The position numbers and the translations under genes are program-made. The notes below the pieces were generated by a model. That model saw only the letters and a program-made list of their open reading frames with translations. It did not search any database and had not been told where the DNA came from. Positions 110 to 6,192 of a stretch of DNA of 64,000 bases are shown here, in pieces (position 1 is the stretch's first letter; each line of letters starts with the position of its first letter). Source of the stretch: a virus (taxonomy: Duplodnaviria; Caudoviricetes); IMG/VR virus record IMGVR_UViG_3300037067_007506, positions 4,865 to 68,864 of that record. The stretch is one strand, 5' to 3'.

Positions 110-811
110 ATGTGTAATATTTTATTTGATGAAAAATATAAAGAATCAACTAAAAATAATTTTATAACTGCTTATGGTTCTGAAGTTATGGATGAAGAAT
201 TTTTTGAATTCTTTTTCAAAAATCATGAAACTGTAAATTATCATTGTTTAGAATTTTTGAATAAATTTAAATTAAATTTTTCTAATAATAAATATTACTT
301 TATAAATAAAAAATTTAATGAAAAAAGAATGTTACAATTATTTTTATTATCTATAATAACAAAAATCAAGTATGAATCAAAATCTACTGATGAATTGAAA
401 AAAGTTATCAATATAATACCTACAGGATCGTTAAGAATTTTTGAACATTATGAAATAAAAGATTTTATGGATAATTTATTGAAAAAAGAAGATAAATTAT
501 CCATAAATGATTTTGATGATGTTGATTATATTATATTGAAAGATTTTAAAAATGAAAGTTTAACTGACAAACAGGTTGATTATTTTAAACCTGTTTTATG
601 TTCTTTTATACAAAGATTATTATATACACATACAAAAATAATATTTTTATCAAATAAGATAAATAATAATATAGATTTGTTAGTTGATAATGAAATTTTA
701 GATAACTATAAAAAAATAATTTCAGATAAAGATTTAGATAAGAGTTTAATTTCACAAATTGTTAAAAAAGATAATAATATTCAAAATAAAGTAATATTTG
801 AACCATATTAA
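110..811 (+). CDS. hypothetical protein (possible degenerate DnaC/IstB-like AAA+ fold)
   Basis: 233-aa ORF with AAGGA RBS; DYIILKDF resembles a Walker B strand, but there is no intact Walker A. Confidence 0.3.
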   Translation: MCNILFDEKYKESTKNNFITAYGSEVMDEEFFEFFFKNHETVNYHCLEFLNKFKLNFSNNKYYFINKKFNEKRMLQLFLLSIITKIKYESKSTDELKKVINIIPTGSLRIFEHYEIKDFMDNLLKKEDKLSINDFDDVDYIILKDFKNESLTDKQVDYFKPVLCSFIQRLLYTHTKIIFLSNKINNNIDLLVDNEILDNYKKIISDKDLDKSLISQIVKKDNNIQNKVIFEPY

Positions 812-840
812 TTTTAAATATTATATTAAAGGAAAAATAA

Positions 841-1497
841 ATGGTAAAAGTAATAATTGATTTTAGTCAGATAATGTTTAAGACATATTTTATAAAACGA
901 GCACAAAATATGCAAGTTGATTGGGATTTTTGGAGATATTTGATATTAAATAACATCCAAAAATTAATACGAGATTTTCAAGCTCATGAAGTAATATTAG
1001 CTTTAGATTCTAAAAGTTGGAGAAAAGATTATTTTAAATATTATAAAGCTAATAGGGATCATTCAAAAGAAAGTTTGGATGGATTGTTTGATGAATGTAA
1101 TTCTTTTATAAAAGAATTAGAAGCTTTTTTTCCTTATAAAACCATAAGAGTATTTGGTGCTGAAGCTGATGATGTTTTAGCTGTACTAACATTATTTAAA
1201 AAACCTGAAGATTTGTATGTGTTAGTTTCAAATGATAAGGATTTTATTCAGTTATTATCACAGAAGAAAGTTTTATTGTACGATTTATCTAATGAAGAAT
1301 TTATTGCTGATAAAATACCTTTTATAGTGAAAAAAGAAGAATATAATTCTATACAAGATTATATTCATTCATTAATTATTTCGGGTGATGTTGGTGATAA
1401 TGTACCATCAGTTATGCGTGATATATATTTTACAGATAAGTTTATTAATTATATTTCTAATAATACAGAATTTAAAGAGTTTTTAAATGAAATGTAA
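841..1497 (+). CDS. rnh: T4 RNase H-like 5'-3' (flap) exonuclease, N-terminal fragment
   Basis: IIDFSQI, ILALD, WRKDYFKYYKANR, EADDVLA, SNDKDFIQL and GDVGDNVPS match the FEN/T4 RNase H catalytic motifs; the ORF stops just after the GD..DN motif. Confidence 0.9.
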   Translation: MVKVIIDFSQIMFKTYFIKRAQNMQVDWDFWRYLILNNIQKLIRDFQAHEVILALDSKSWRKDYFKYYKANRDHSKESLDGLFDECNSFIKELEAFFPYKTIRVFGAEADDVLAVLTLFKKPEDLYVLVSNDKDFIQLLSQKKVLLYDLSNEEFIADKIPFIVKKEEYNSIQDYIHSLIISGDVGDNVPSVMRDIYFTDKFINYISNNTEFKEFLNEM

Positions 1498-2791
1498 AAT
1501 TTGTGATCGTTATTTTAATAAGGTGTTTAGTATAAAACGACATGTTTTAGGTACTCATAAAATTAAAATAAATTCTATTAATTTGAATGATTATATTATA
1601 TTTAATTCTATTTTTGAAGTAAATATTTACTTCAATAAATTAAAATCATATTTGTGTGGTTATGATAAACAATTATTAGAAATTTATTTAAATCATATTT
1701 CACAAGTTAATATGATGTTATTATATTTGAAAAATAATATTAAATATAATAACATTAATAATGAATCAATATGTAGATTACCTAATTACTTAAATTATAA
1801 ATTAAGTAACAAATATGTTACATCTAAAAAAGAAACCTATATATTTCAATATGGTGAAGATTTAGGAATCAAATTATTTTTAGAATATCAAAATTTTCAA
1901 TCTAAAGCTGGAGTATCTTTAGATTGGTTTCAAATAAAATATGGTTATGAATTAGGGACAATTAAATGGTTAAACCTTAAAAAATCCCAAAGTGAAAGAG
2001 CTAAAATAAATTCTAAAAATGATATTTGGATTTCTAAAGGTAGTAAAAGGTATTGGTTAAAAAGAGGATATGATGAAATTGAATCAACCCAATTATCTTT
2101 AAAATATAATTCTTATTCTAAACAATATTGGATTTCTAAAGGTTTAACATATGAACAAGCTCAAAATAAAGTATTAGAAAGAATTTGGACCTCTGATAAA
2201 TTTATTAATAAAAATAATATAAATTTACAAGAAACAAAAAATAAACTTGTTTTAAGTATTAAAAAATCTGATTATTATAAAATACATAAAAAATATGGAT
2301 TAAAGAAATATTGGATATTTAAATACGGTTATGATTTAGGATGTCAAAGATATGAGACTTTCTTATTTAAACGTTCATTATATCCTAAAAGAAAAGTTAA
2401 AAGGCAATCTAATATAGCTATAAAATTTTTTGATGAGTTATTAACATATATACCTGATAAAGAAAATGTATATTATTATAATCATAATGGTGAAAAGAAG
2501 ATAGGAAAATATTATGTAGATTTTTATTATAAAGGAATAGTTATAGAATTTAATGGTGATTTTTGGCACGGAAATCCTAGATTCTATAAAGAATATAATT
2601 ATAATACTGTTTTAAAAAAGTTCTATTCTGAAATTTGGGATCATGATGATATAAAGAATTCTAATATATTAAAAATAGATTATATAAAAGAATTGTTTAT
2701 AATTTGGGAAGATCGTGATAAAACTAAAGAAAGTTTAACTTCATTATGTTTAGATTTGATTAAAAATTTTAAGGAGTATAATATATGTTAA
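1487..2791 (+). mobile_element. free-standing homing endonuclease (C-terminal Vsr-like PD-(D/E)XK domain, N-terminal C2H2 finger, YGxxLG/WxxKG repeats) inserted in rnh
   Basis: YYVDFY..IVIEFNGDFWHGNP nuclease motif; KCKICD..H...H finger; overlaps both rnh fragments. Confidence 0.8.
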
Positions 2792-3180
2792 CAGAATTAG
2801 ATCAAAAGATACTGGATTTTAAAAAAAAATATCCGGAAAAATTTGAAAAAATTAAAAGTGATTATATGAAAATTAATAAAATGACTAATAAACCTTTTAG
2901 TGATAAAACTATAAAGAGTATAATTAATTTAGGTATTGTTAAATGGTTAAATGGTCAACCTAAGGAAGTTTTAGAGAATTACGAACGAAATAAAAAATTA
3001 ATTGTTTTATCAAAAGAAACAATTCCACAAGAAGTTCAAGATAATATATTAGAAGCTTATAAAAATTCTAAACCTGTGGTTGATAAAGTTTTAATTGATA
3101 ATTATTTGAAATCTAGAAACATGGCTTCAATGTATAAGAAGGTAAATGATTTTTTACCAAAAAAAGAATTATATTTCTAA
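2785..3180 (+). CDS. rnh: T4 RNase H-like exonuclease, C-terminal fragment
   Basis: NYERNKKLIVL..IPQEVQDNILEAY resembles the T4 RNase H C-terminus; own AAGGAG RBS at 2771-2776; same frame as the N-fragment. Confidence 0.8.
   Translation: MLTELDQKILDFKKKYPEKFEKIKSDYMKINKMTNKPFSDKTIKSIINLGIVKWLNGQPKEVLENYERNKKLIVLSKETIPQEVQDNILEAYKNSKPVVDKVLIDNYLKSRNMASMYKKVNDFLPKKELYF
3134..3180 (+). repeat. upstream copy of a 47-bp direct repeat flanking TnpB-1
   Basis: 3134-3158 is identical to 4457-4481; 41/47 identity over the full repeat. Confidence 0.95.
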
Positions 3181-3219
3181 AACTAACTATTCTTAATTAT
3201 ATAAAAGGAAAATAAACAG

Positions 3220-4431
3220 TTGCAACGAACAGAAAGACATATATTAACAAAATATAATGAAAATTTTAAACAAATAGATAATCTTTGTTTTTTATCAAAA
3301 AATCTATATAATTATGTTAATTATTTATTGAGACAAAATTATTTTGAAAATATGAAAAAAGATAAAAAAGAAAGAGTTTGGTTAAATGAATATGAATTAG
3401 TATCACAATTAGCAAAAGATGATCAAATAGATTATAGATCATTACCATCAAAAACTAGTCAACAGATAATTAAAGTTTTGTTTAAAAATTGGAAATCATT
3501 TTGGAAATTAATCAAAACAAAAGGTTTAAAAGGTAAACCTCAAATACCAAAATTTAAAGATAAATTAAAAGGTAGAAATATAATAATTTTCACAAATCAG
3601 GGTTGTAAAATAAAAGATGGATTTATTTATTTTAACAAAAAATGTGGAATAATTAAAGTAAAAACAAATATTAAAAATGACCAATTGAATCAAGTTCGAA
3701 TTATTCCACAATCAAATTGTTATGTGTTAGAAGTTGTTTATGTAAAAGAAAAGGAGGAAAAAGAATTAGATATCTCAAAATATTTAAGTATTGATTTAGG
3801 TATTAATAATTTAGCTGCATGTATAACTAACCAGGATTTAAATCCTTTGTTAGTAAATGGTAAAATTGTAAAAAGTATCAATCAATATTATAATAAGACA
3901 AAAGCAAAATTTATGAGTTTCATAGGTGATAAAGGTATTTCAAATAGAATTAGAAAATTAAATTTTAAAAGAAATAATAAAATAAATGATTATTTTCACA
4001 AAACAAGTAGATTTATAATTAATTATTGTTTAAAAAATAAAATACAAACAATAATAATTGGTTATAATGAAGGTTGGAAACAAAATTGTAATATTGGTAA
4101 AGTTAATAATCAAAAATTTGTTAGTATACCTTATTTAAAATTAATTAAACAAATTGAATATAAAGCTGAAGAAGTTGGAATATTTGTTTTAATTAATGAA
4201 GAACGTTTTACTTCTAAATGTGATGCTTTAGCATTAGAGGAATTGAAACATCATGATAAATATTTAGGTACTAGAGTTCATAGAGGATTATATCAAAGTT
4301 CTGTAGGAAAAATGATAAATGCTGATGTAAATGGCGCAATAAATATCATGAGAAAAGTAGTTGATAATTTGATTGTGAAATCAATAATCAATAGAGGTTG
4401 TGTGAATCAACCAATTAGAATTAATTTCTAA
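3220..4431 (+). mobile_element. tnpB: TnpB-1, IS200/IS605-family RNA-guided endonuclease (rearranged RuvC-II type), no tnpA adjacent
   Basis: SIDLGINN (RuvC-I D), IIIGYNEGWKQ with Glu relocated to EERFTSK, INADVNGAINI (RuvC-III D). Confidence 0.9.
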
Positions 4432-4456
4432 TAAACTTTCTTAAATGAAAGAATTC

Positions 4457-4503
4457 ATAAGAAGGTAAATGATTTTTTACCTAAAAAGGAAACTTATTTC
4501 TAG
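4457..4503 (+). repeat. downstream copy of the rnh 3' end, in the predicted omega-RNA guide position of TnpB-1
   Basis: Encodes KKVNDFLPKKETYF-stop versus KKVNDFLPKKELYF-stop upstream. Confidence 0.9.
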
Positions 4504-4556
4504 TTTACTATTGTAAATTTTTAAAAACCTACTATACTTATAATAAGAGGAATATT

Positions 4557-4949
4557 ATGTCAGATAAGAAATTAAAATTTTGTATACTTGAACAAGACCA
4601 TAAATCTTTCACTTACATGACTCGATTGATTACATATATAGAAGAGTTTGAAAATTTTCAATTAAGTTCTTTTGGTAATATTTTACAGTCTGAAGAAATT
4701 GAAGATCATTTAAGACGTCACGGTTTTAAATTAGAATCTCGTGAAGCTGTATTGGAATCGTTAAATTGGATTGATAAATATGGTGAAAGATTTAGAATAT
4801 ATTTAAATACTTTGATGGTAGCTTATCTATTATATATATCTCATAGAGATGAAACTAATGATGACGAGTTAACTTTTGACACATTTAGGTTGATAGCTAA
4901 AGAATTAAATGAAACAAATGCTAAAAAAATACTAAATTATATTTTTTAA
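4557..4949 (+). CDS. hypothetical protein
   Basis: 130-aa ORF with GAGG RBS, preceded by a TTGTAA...TATACT promoter-like sequence. Confidence 0.6.
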   Translation: MSDKKLKFCILEQDHKSFTYMTRLITYIEEFENFQLSSFGNILQSEEIEDHLRRHGFKLESREAVLESLNWIDKYGERFRIYLNTLMVAYLLYISHRDETNDDELTFDTFRLIAKELNETNAKKILNYIF

Positions 4950-5251
4950 GGAAGTTATATGAAGTTAATGCTAATATTTATTATTATGTTATTTTTTTGT
5001 TGTCAATCTAATAAAAGTTTTATTGAATATGAAAAAACTAATAAAACTAACACTATACATTTACATATATTTGGATTGGAGGTTTTAAAAAATAAATGAA
5101 AACTAACATACAAAATTTTATTATACTAGTTATAGCTATTATTATTTTAGGGTTTATATTTGTAGATTCTTTTATGGAAAATCTAAAAACAAATTTCAAA
5201 AAAATTTTTAACAAATAATCTTTGATTTTATATTTGTTAAAAGAGGTATTT

Positions 5252-5713
5252 ATGATTGAAACAATTTTAACAAATTTATCAAAGGAATTTTTGAATAGTT
5301 TTTTCCAAATGTTAGTTATTGGGTTAACAAATGCTATTATTACAGTATTTTTCACGGAAGCATTTAAAATAAGTTGGAATTCTTTATCCAAAAAGAAATT
5401 GAATAATGTTCTTAGTTGGATAGTGAATATATTCTCAATAGTTATTTTATCAATTGCATCTATGATTGTATTTGGAACTCAGATATCAATTTTGTATTTA
5501 TTTTATTATGGTTTAAGTTTGTTTTTTATTACTTTTTCAGCCTCAAAAGTATTTTATGTGACAATTTTTAAAACTATAATGAACAAAGCTAAACATTTAA
5601 TGAGACATTCAGAATTAGAAAATATACTTTTAGAAAATGAAATTGATAAAAATATTAAATTGATTGATGAAATTAAAAAAGAAAAAGTTTTGAAAGGTAA
5701 ATTAAGTGAATAA
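5252..5713 (+). CDS. multi-pass membrane protein, holin-like
   Basis: 3-4 hydrophobic segments and a charged C-tail; GAGGT RBS favours ATG 5252; first gene of a membrane cluster. Confidence 0.4.
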   Translation: MIETILTNLSKEFLNSFFQMLVIGLTNAIITVFFTEAFKISWNSLSKKKLNNVLSWIVNIFSIVILSIASMIVFGTQISILYLFYYGLSLFFITFSASKVFYVTIFKTIMNKAKHLMRHSELENILLENEIDKNIKLIDEIKKEKVLKGKLSE

Positions 5714-5835
5714 AAAAGAATATTTAAATTATAAATACCATTATGATTTTGATAAACCTAATAAAGACTTAATGATCCAAATTAAAAGATCTTTAAGACG
5801 AAAAAATAAACAAAAATTCCTGATGGATATAAAAA

Positions 5836-6192
5836 ATGATAAAATGGATTAAAGAACACCCAAAACTGACCATTATAATTGTGGTTGCTGTAATAGCTTT
5901 AATATTATCTTTAGTTTTTTCAAATGTATTAATAAATATTGTTACTGGTATCGTTGCAATATTTAAAATGTTAGGTAAGTCCAAAAGCACTGATGAATTA
6001 ATAAAAGAAAATAAAGAAAAACAAGAAGCTTTAGATAAAAAGATAAAAGAATCAAAACAAAATCAAAAACTATTATCTGATCAAATAGACGAACAAAAGA
6101 AACAACTTTCTGATAAAGAACAAGAAGTTGAAAATATAAAAAACAATCAAGTTGATTTAAATGATATAGCTAATAAATTAAATGATTTATAA
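5836..6192 (+). CDS. N-terminally anchored coiled-coil protein (i-spanin-like)
   Basis: N-terminal TM segment followed by a K/E/Q-rich coiled coil. Confidence 0.4.
   Translation: MIKWIKEHPKLTIIIVVAVIALILSLVFSNVLINIVTGIVAIFKMLGKSKSTDELIKENKEKQEALDKKIKESKQNQKLLSDQIDEQKKQLSDKEQEVENIKNNQVDLNDIANKLNDL

Follow-up and report, generated by a model that had tools for sequence, protein, structure and literature searches.

Genes in pieces that arise through a free-standing homing endonuclease are an accepted, sparsely documented class, known from a handful of host genes. The described cases that involve neither an intron nor an intein are nrdA of phage Aeh1, split by mobE, gene 43 of phage 25, genes 39/60 of T4, and an SbcD-like gene; for Aeh1 NrdA and gp43 of phage 25 the split halves have been shown to work together (PMC2988022). 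A family of Vsr-like endonucleases was reported in "fractured" phage genes by Dassa et al. 2009 (PMC2677866), and was later named EDxHD, with I-Bth0305I as its prototype and the T-even Hef proteins included (PMC3239194). Here we analyse a locus in 64,000 nt of viral DNA (the window), positions 4865-68864 of the 68.9 kb IMG/VR viral record IMGVR_UViG_3300037067_007506, where a predicted endonuclease of this family is inserted in rnh, the gene of a T4-type RNase H. The rnh product is a flap endonuclease (FEN)-type 5'-3' exonuclease which removes Okazaki primers. We consider it probable that a free-standing Vsr-like/EDxHD gene has been inserted in rnh, that the locus gives three proteins, and that the N- and C-terminal chains re-associate into a working enzyme.

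Layout of the rnh locus

The locus has three open reading frames (ORFs) on the + strand. The first, rnh-N (841..1497), encodes a 218-aa N-terminal piece of a T4-type RNase H / flap endonuclease, and the ribosome-binding site (RBS) read from the sequence, AAAGGAAAA (828..836, + strand), lies 7 nt before its ATG at 841. The second (1487..2791), of 434 aa, is assigned by family alignment and by the domains of its relatives to a free-standing Vsr-like (EDxHD / Hef-type) homing endonuclease gene, and has a weak RBS, AAAGAG (1474..1479, + strand), 7 nt before its ATG at 1487, within the end of rnh-N. The third, rnh-C (2785..3180), encodes the 131-aa C-terminal piece. Its Shine-Dalgarno sequence AAGGAG (2771..2776, + strand) is found 8 nt before the ATG at 2785, within the 3' end of the endonuclease ORF, where an initial annotation of the sequence had already placed it.

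The same annotation had described an N-fragment ending in GAA ATG TAA and a C-fragment starting in the same frame, and both are as described. The 3' end of rnh-N reads AAT GAA ATG TAA, with the ATG at 1492-1494 and the stop at 1495-1497, and the distance from this ATG to the start of rnh-C is 2785-1492 = 1293 nt (431 x 3). Formal deletion of the 1293 bp gives an ORF of 348 codons, and the removal does restore one gene, a single domain over nearly the whole family profile (see below). The insertion had also been called in-frame, which holds for its length, a multiple of 3, but not for the endonuclease, which is in another frame than rnh. The sequence ATGT is indeed present at both ends of the insert; it is only 4 nt long and homing leaves no target duplication, so it says nothing about the mechanism. 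The middle ORF overlaps rnh-N by 11 nt and rnh-C by 7 nt, with its own stop at 2789-2791, and its composition is the same as that of the flanks (GC 19.7%, GC at third codon positions 11%). Neither the endonuclease gene nor rnh was found a second time in the contig. Nor was there any other PF02739 gene in the 68.9 kb record; as this amounts to about 30% of a genome, a second rnh may lie in the remainder.

The completeness of the record is approximately 30% as estimated by CheckV. The GC content of the window is about 22%, and the + strand carries nearly all long ORFs. A megablast search of the window DNA against phage records gave no match, and no closer relative or empty-site allele. Of 1763 phage records, mostly named for hosts of T4-like phages, those of Campylobacter Eucampyvirinae phages have the RNase H most similar to that of this locus (about 35% identity). 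We take the source to be a T4-like phage, uncultured and very AT-rich, whose host has a low GC content.

The outer ORFs as two halves of one RNase H

To compare the outer ORFs with the family we used a hidden Markov model (HMM) of 285 positions, built from 67 full-length homologues. In this profile rnh-N spans HMM positions 2-191 (expect value, E, 2.5e-51) and rnh-C positions 196-285 (E 7e-11), and the joined protein is a single domain over positions 2-285. The predicted products of the outer ORFs are complementary, colinear and non-overlapping halves of one T4-type RNase H/FEN.

The N-terminal piece has the PIN-like 5'-3' exonuclease domain of the family, with its metal-binding aspartates. 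It was recognised by PF02739, with a score of 76.7 bits vs a cut-off of 34.3 (E 2.2e-21), and by the exonuclease family phrog_107 (E 8.6e-33). It aligns to residues 17-214 of T4 RNase H (1tfr, E 2.7e-15), and its residues D7, D56, R61, D110, D132, D134, D183 and D186 correspond to T4 D19, D71, R79, D132, D155, D157, D197 and D200, the roles of which have been described (PMC3012046). The GDxGD motif is on rnh-N as well (G182-D183-x-G-D186). All catalytic aspartates are found on this piece and none is left to rnh-C.

The C-terminal piece starts with a Lys/Glu-rich head (residues 1-28) that is absent from insertion-less homologues, followed by the conserved helical C-terminal subdomain (residues 29-123) with the pattern KP...RNxxL...IP...Y...F. 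The match to PF09293, RNaseH_C, was weak (E 0.019, 15.8 bits, below the 25-bit cut-off), and a PDB sequence search with rnh-C gave no match. The RNaseH_C subdomain of the T4-type enzyme is present, but on a separate ORF.

Alignment to uninterrupted homologues bears out the division of a single gene. The metagenomic protein P0009 (346 aa) aligns with its residues 1-208 to rnh-N at 43% identity, and with its residues 227-340 to rnh-C at 34% identity (BLASTP E 6e-16). The similarity crosses the junction, where ...EFKEFLNEM of rnh-N joined to LTELDQK... of rnh-C is matched by ...EFKNFIKSYSAKELNEK... in P0009. The rnh of Campylobacter phage CP81, 341 aa and one coding sequence, is likewise contiguous across the junction, and the joined protein aligns end to end with both of these relatives. 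Closer relatives were not found, the best identity being 34% in IMG/VR and 43% in a set of 5.8 billion proteins. An AlphaFold 2 (AF2) model of P0009 had a mean predicted local distance difference test score (pLDDT) of 82.9, and it resembles the T4 RNase H structures 3h8s, 1tfr and 2ihn, with E from about 1e-14 to 1e-15. On the model the break falls in a loop between two short helices, within the only stretch of low confidence (residues 181-260); residues 261-346 have a pLDDT of 85-97.

The middle ORF as a Vsr-like endonuclease

The middle ORF is a predicted Vsr-like (EDxHD, Hef-type) homing endonuclease, a family that was recognised via the domains of its relatives, a family profile and the literature. 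The C-terminal nuclease domain covers approximately residues 308-430 and includes D345, E354, N356, H361, D387 and W407. The centre of the protein has the repeats YGxxLG and YWIxKG, and residues 3-24 form a possible N-terminal C2H2 zinc finger, a weak match (E 0.009-0.05). The invariant columns of the family alignment, A1, include E354, N356, G357, D358, F359, W360, H361, D387 and W407. The core shared by the relatives is IE-x-NGDFWH...D...IW(E/D), and the motif in this locus is IEFNGDFWH.

Eight relatives were compared with Pfam, and PF18741 was found in four (best 5e-7) and PF04480, DUF559, in three. One relative in A1 matches both NUMOD3 (2e-4) and I-TevI_ZnF (2e-4). The top PDB matches of the family profile were Vsr (1odg/1vsr, E 0.09) and I-Bth0305I (3r3p, "mobile intron protein", E 0.45), and in the alignment to Vsr the columns of the catalytic Asp, His and Asp are in register (DF..., G.FWH, D...IWE). 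The core residues of Vsr are Asp51, His64 (or Asn), His69 and Asp97, plus a Glu that is invariant in the family (PMC2677866, PMC3239194), and the corresponding D345, N356, H361 and D387, plus E354, are present in the middle ORF. LAGLIDADG, GIY-YIG and HNH were also considered, and rejected as there was no Pfam, PHROG or PDB sequence match. Together with the profile, PF02739 and 1tfr matches of the outer ORFs, the EDxHD features uphold the identity first proposed for the locus, that of an RNase H gene interrupted by a homing endonuclease.

There are 92 relatives of the endonuclease family in IMG/VR, and members reside inside interrupted conserved phage genes, among them this rnh and, in the neighbourhoods that were scanned, the genes at two other loci. 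At L067:907-3915 a DnaB-like helicase with an N-intein is followed by an endonuclease of the same family and then a 182-aa ORF. At L069:1542-5636 the order is PolB with an N-intein, an endonuclease of the same family, and a C-intein with the remainder of PolB.

Other members of the family are found in other settings. On L071, L072 and L074 the endonuclease-family gene is directly upstream of a T4-type large terminase. P0005 (485 aa, ENA, on a 22.9 kb contig) is an in-frame fusion in which about 40 residues similar to the N-terminus of Rad50/gp46 precede the endonuclease. They end in the Walker A motif GINGNGK, and CLSPDTEI, resembling intein block A, comes next. P0005 may be an intein that has acquired a Vsr-like endonuclease.

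Intron and intein tests

Split inteins and group I introns are the usual sites of the EDxHD/Vsr-like family (PMC2677866), and intein halves flank its members at L067 and L069. By this habit of the family, the two halves of rnh might be rejoined into one chain by a split intein or by a hidden intron that splices itself. The RNA gives no sign of it. An E-value scan of positions 600-4800 with Rfam found no intron family, Intron_gpI included, at E<=10, only two chance snoRNA matches with E>5, and folding of the junction RNA was no better than that of shuffled sequence (z +1.2 and -0.6). There is no non-coding space in the insert, as the middle ORF fills it and overlaps both pieces. The initial annotation had stated that no room was left for an intron, and the 11 and 7 nt overlaps and the lack of an Rfam intron agree with this. 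A group I intron-encoded endonuclease does not fit the locus, with no ribozyme core by Rfam and unstructured junctions.

The proteins are equally silent. Pfam searches with rnh-N and rnh-C gave no Hint or Intein_splicing match at E<=0.1, and the alignment to P0009 assigns all residues, with none spare for intein halves, so the claim that the locus has no intein holds. Furthermore, rnh-C starts with Met-Leu-Thr-Glu, which offers no Cys/Ser/Thr nucleophile after the start and has no His-Asn/Cys context. A split-intein fractured gene does not fit either, since there is no intein match, whereas L067 and L069 do match. That the two halves are rejoined by cryptic splicing, of RNA or of protein, is in our view extremely improbable.

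The same break point in other lineages

An exhaustive search with rnh-C of 1.84 billion representative proteins returned full-length rnh proteins and also several short ones. The stand-alone C-fragments P0082, P0098 (from Met32), P0099, P0103 and P0104/P0109 are 127-139 aa long, and all of them start at HMM positions 193-203. P0082, of 128 aa, matches rnh-C with E 3.8e-21. They carry a Met-led, Lys/Glu-rich head homologous to that of rnh-C (M..LDxKI..FK...), and R68, N69, L75, I80, P81, Y92 and F123 are kept in all of them. The identity to rnh-C is about 26-38% (38% for P0082 by BLASTP), and the divergence of these fragments is as large as that between full-length rnh genes. P0103 and P0104 come from contigs of 141.7 kb and 8.3 kb, and are therefore not stumps at contig ends. 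At least five other diverged metagenomic proteins, predicted C-fragments, share the break point of this locus.

Searches for the surroundings of these fragments gave less. Scans of viral, metagenome and genome contigs for stand-alone C-fragments returned intact rnh genes only, or nothing, a search with the last 99 residues of rnh-N found nothing, and no cultured phage with the same rnh split was found.

An rnh gene in two ORFs was also seen at L008:5004-6152, in a T4-like record of 175.7 kb (IMGVR_UViG_3300028800_000060). The ORFs are at 5004-5588 and 5676-6152, and the break is elsewhere, before the GDxxDG motif, with about 190 nt of unrelated sequence between the homologous parts. It has no Rfam match and its fold is unremarkable (z -0.6). 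The protein P0063 (201 aa) terminates near the same profile position as this second break. P0081 (1624 aa), P0087 and P0095 match residues 25-107 of rnh-C in 7-29 repeated stretches, and these matches are most likely an artefact of Lys/Glu-rich repeats and not homology.

Is the divided gene functional?

Several observations weigh against a working enzyme of two chains, and two of them concern what the C-terminal piece is for. The whole active site is on rnh-N, with the counterparts of T4 D19, D71, R79, D132, D155, D157 and D200 and the GDxGD motif, and the C-terminal domain of the T4 enzyme has been implicated in contact with gp32 and not in catalysis (PMC3012046). It is conceivable, then, and the main alternative to our reading, that rnh-N alone is a working nuclease, and that rnh-C is an accessory in trans, for example a gp32-docking module, or is dispensable. 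Such a division of labour seems unlikely to us. In the family fold the C-terminal helices belong to the same model as the remainder, at high confidence in P0009 residues 261-346, and the conserved residues of the C piece are kept in at least five diverged split lineages, which suggests that it is retained for something. A docking module would also be pointless unless it was bound to the nuclease.

Other points bear on whether the gene is alive at all. T4 can do without rnh as long as it has host Pol I (PMC3012046), so that a loss of function would be tolerable, and no relative above 43% identity was found that could reveal purifying selection on this copy. The other stand-alone C-fragments are known from their protein sequences. 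A recent selfish insertion may have knocked out a dispensable rnh, the frames being open merely because they are young. This is improbable for several reasons. At approximately 20% GC about one random codon in 10 is a stop, as estimated from composition, and an unselected frame of 131 codons is unlikely to last; the insert comes with a neat stop codon, with AAGGAG and with a start codon; and the same break point recurs with intact, conserved stand-alone C-fragments at 26-39% identity. An open frame, kept motifs and a kept start codon at such a divergence argue against a dead gene. The initial annotation had reckoned with a C-fragment that is degenerate in relatives; instead, at least five diverged stand-alone C-fragments keep the motifs.

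The endonuclease itself is also less well modelled than the rest. Its AF2 model is poor (mean pLDDT 50.5, with 58-74 in the C-terminal domain) and resembles the Vsr fold weakly, 1vsr being at rank 45 in Foldseek with E 6.5 and a target TM-score (template modelling score) of 0.42; Foldseek found nothing significant with this model. Lastly, the assembly of the two chains is something that we infer by analogy. With these points counted, a divided RNase H whose chains find each other is still the reading that we prefer.

An insert around the break

Between the conserved stretches ...DDxFV and GxRQKP..., the joined protein carries an insert of 44 aa which is missing from most homologues. Approximately 16 aa of it are on rnh-N (about residues 203-218) and approximately 33 aa on rnh-C. 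Among about 95 homologues, a comparable insert in a single chain (39-57 aa) is found only in P0009, P0094, P0106 and CP81.

The extra residues appear to move together with the fracture. The stand-alone C-fragment P0104 is 55% identical to P0015, which is contiguous and lacks the insert, but only from residue 35 on, and P0099 is 50% identical to the contiguous insert-less P0012, but again only from residue 35 on. The heads of both fragments are homologous to the rnh-C head of this locus. Since the identity to insert-less rnh begins past the head, fracture and extra residues go together, as Dassa et al. remarked for the SbcD-like gene. P0104 groups with P0015 as its sister, with a Shimodaira-Hasegawa-like approximate likelihood ratio test (SH-aLRT) value of 98; no other pairing was used, since the tree, built on the C-terminal 90 columns, lacks the resolution needed for counting how often the split arose. 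A recent horizontal spread, which would have left the heads more conserved than the cores, was not supported overall, as the identities are similar, with the exception of P0099/P0104 (65% vs 39%).

It is possible that the insert came first and gave a tolerant site, or that it came with the endonuclease and that the single-chain genes with an insert are healed scars. A fuller version of the second order of events can be put forward tentatively, and we doubt it more than we believe it. A cassette would carry the endonuclease gene together with a coding tail (about 16 aa) and head (about 33 aa) that act as docking peptides, and would have spread by homing into several rnh lineages. The uninterrupted genes with an insert (P0009, P0094, P0106 and those of the Campylobacter Eucampyvirinae phages) would be scars, healed after in-frame loss of the endonuclease ORF. 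The idea is supported by P0104 and P0099, which match insert-less rnh only from residue 35 and yet have homologous heads. If true, it would be an intein-free route to harmless gene fracture.

Proposed mechanism

In the reading that we prefer, the insert brings three signals with it. The upstream piece gets its stop codon, formed within codons 3-4 of the endonuclease, and rnh-C gets a strong Shine-Dalgarno sequence and an ATG that overlaps the last codons of the endonuclease. No terminator was found on the + strand between 600 and 4700, which implies that one transcript probably carries all three ORFs. Scans for promoters, and for late promoters (TATAAATA), were uninformative at 20% GC. A polycistronic mRNA would then probably give RNase H-N (218 aa), the endonuclease and RNase H-C (131 aa). 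We expect rnh-N to be translated from its own site. The endonuclease would be made at a low level, from a weak site and with an 11-nt overlap; low-level expression has been described for the seg and mob genes of T4 (PMC2988022). Translation of rnh-C would start at the strong AAGGAG in the endonuclease tail.

The N piece, with the active site and the GDxGD/H3TH (helix-three-turn-helix) region, and the C piece, with the helical subdomain, would then re-associate non-covalently, as has been shown for Aeh1 NrdA and for gp43 of phage 25 (PMC2988022). The target of the endonuclease is probably the uninterrupted rnh allele, which it would cut near the conserved coding stretch ...DDxFV/GxRQKP... flanking the insertion, and it probably spreads via repair of the double-strand break.

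Neighbouring features

Directly after rnh-C there is a TnpB gene at 3220-4431, with IS605 OrfB and Cas12f-like TNB matches (phrog_506 transposase, E 2e-49). It is bracketed by 51-nt copies of the rnh 3' end, stop included, at 3129-3179 and 4452-4502, which are 86% identical and encode ...MYKKVNDFLPKKELYF and ...IHKKVNDFLPKKETYF, each ending at the stop. With these flanking copies, the TnpB gene makes the rnh locus a host of two different mobile elements. The 233-aa ORF at 110-811, which comes just before rnh-N, matched nothing in Pfam or PHROG. In Campylobacter phages rnh is preceded by the genes for gp32 and a clamp-loader subunit.

Comparison with known systems

The way that rnh is divided would make it a natural fragment-complementation pair in an enzyme family that has been studied well, with the active site on one chain and the subdomain that contacts gp32 in T4 on the other. 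The gene could also be a usable system for the cycle of invasion, tolerance and loss of an EDxHD endonuclease, a family with one characterised member. For annotation, it suggests that where a T4-like phage has a short "5'-3' exonuclease" ORF paired with a short "hypothetical" one, the two may form a single enzyme.

The parallel with Aeh1 nrdA/mobE, drawn in the initial annotation, is apt (PMC2988022). In the nrdA-a / mobE / nrdA-b arrangement (Friedrich et al. 2007, reviewed in PMC2988022), as here, an endonuclease gene is placed inside a DNA-metabolism gene of a T4-like phage, there is no intron or intein, the two pieces are separately translated ORFs, and the start of the endonuclease overlaps the upstream stop. 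The endonuclease is an HNH enzyme, MobE, in Aeh1 but Vsr-like/EDxHD here, and the host gene encodes ribonucleotide reductase there and a FEN-type RNase H in this locus. That the divided enzyme works has been demonstrated for Aeh1, and is proposed for rnh.

The intein-less SbcD-like gene (Dassa et al. 2009, PMC2677866) has the same endonuclease family and the same layout, and extra residues beside the break, 25 and 9 aa as compared to about 16 and 33 aa in this locus. It differs in the host gene; in rnh, moreover, the extra residues are also found in the uninterrupted P0009, P0094 and CP81, and several lineages share the break point. The genes fractured by split inteins with a Vsr-like or GIY-YIG endonuclease (PMC2677866) are similar in endonuclease family and in style of overlap, and their host genes are phage replication and repair genes. 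Their halves are ligated by intein parts, of which the rnh locus has none.

I-Bth0305I, whose gene lies in a group I intron in recA of Bacillus phage 0305phi8-36 (PMC3239194), has the same Asp/Asn/His/Asp core (here D345, N356, H361, D387). Its Vsr-like core is joined to separate N-terminal DNA-binding modules, for which the repeats and the possible zinc finger are candidates in the present protein. The similarity of I-Bth0305I to the family profile is marginal (E 0.45). It is intron-encoded and 266 aa long, and the present endonuclease is free-standing, 434 aa long, with other N-terminal repeats and a possible zinc finger. T4 RNase H (1tfr, 2ihn) is predicted to share with the rnh product the fold, the active-site residues, and a likely role in primer removal and on 5' flaps. 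It is one chain of 305 aa, unlike the two chains of this locus with their 44-aa insert around the break.

Both the class of mechanism and the intein-less use of this endonuclease family are already known, and rnh is a new host gene. The initial annotation knew of no such case for RNase H/FEN, and we found no report of a split rnh/FEN in the literature either. New, too, are a break point that recurs in at least five diverged lineages and the insert associated with it.

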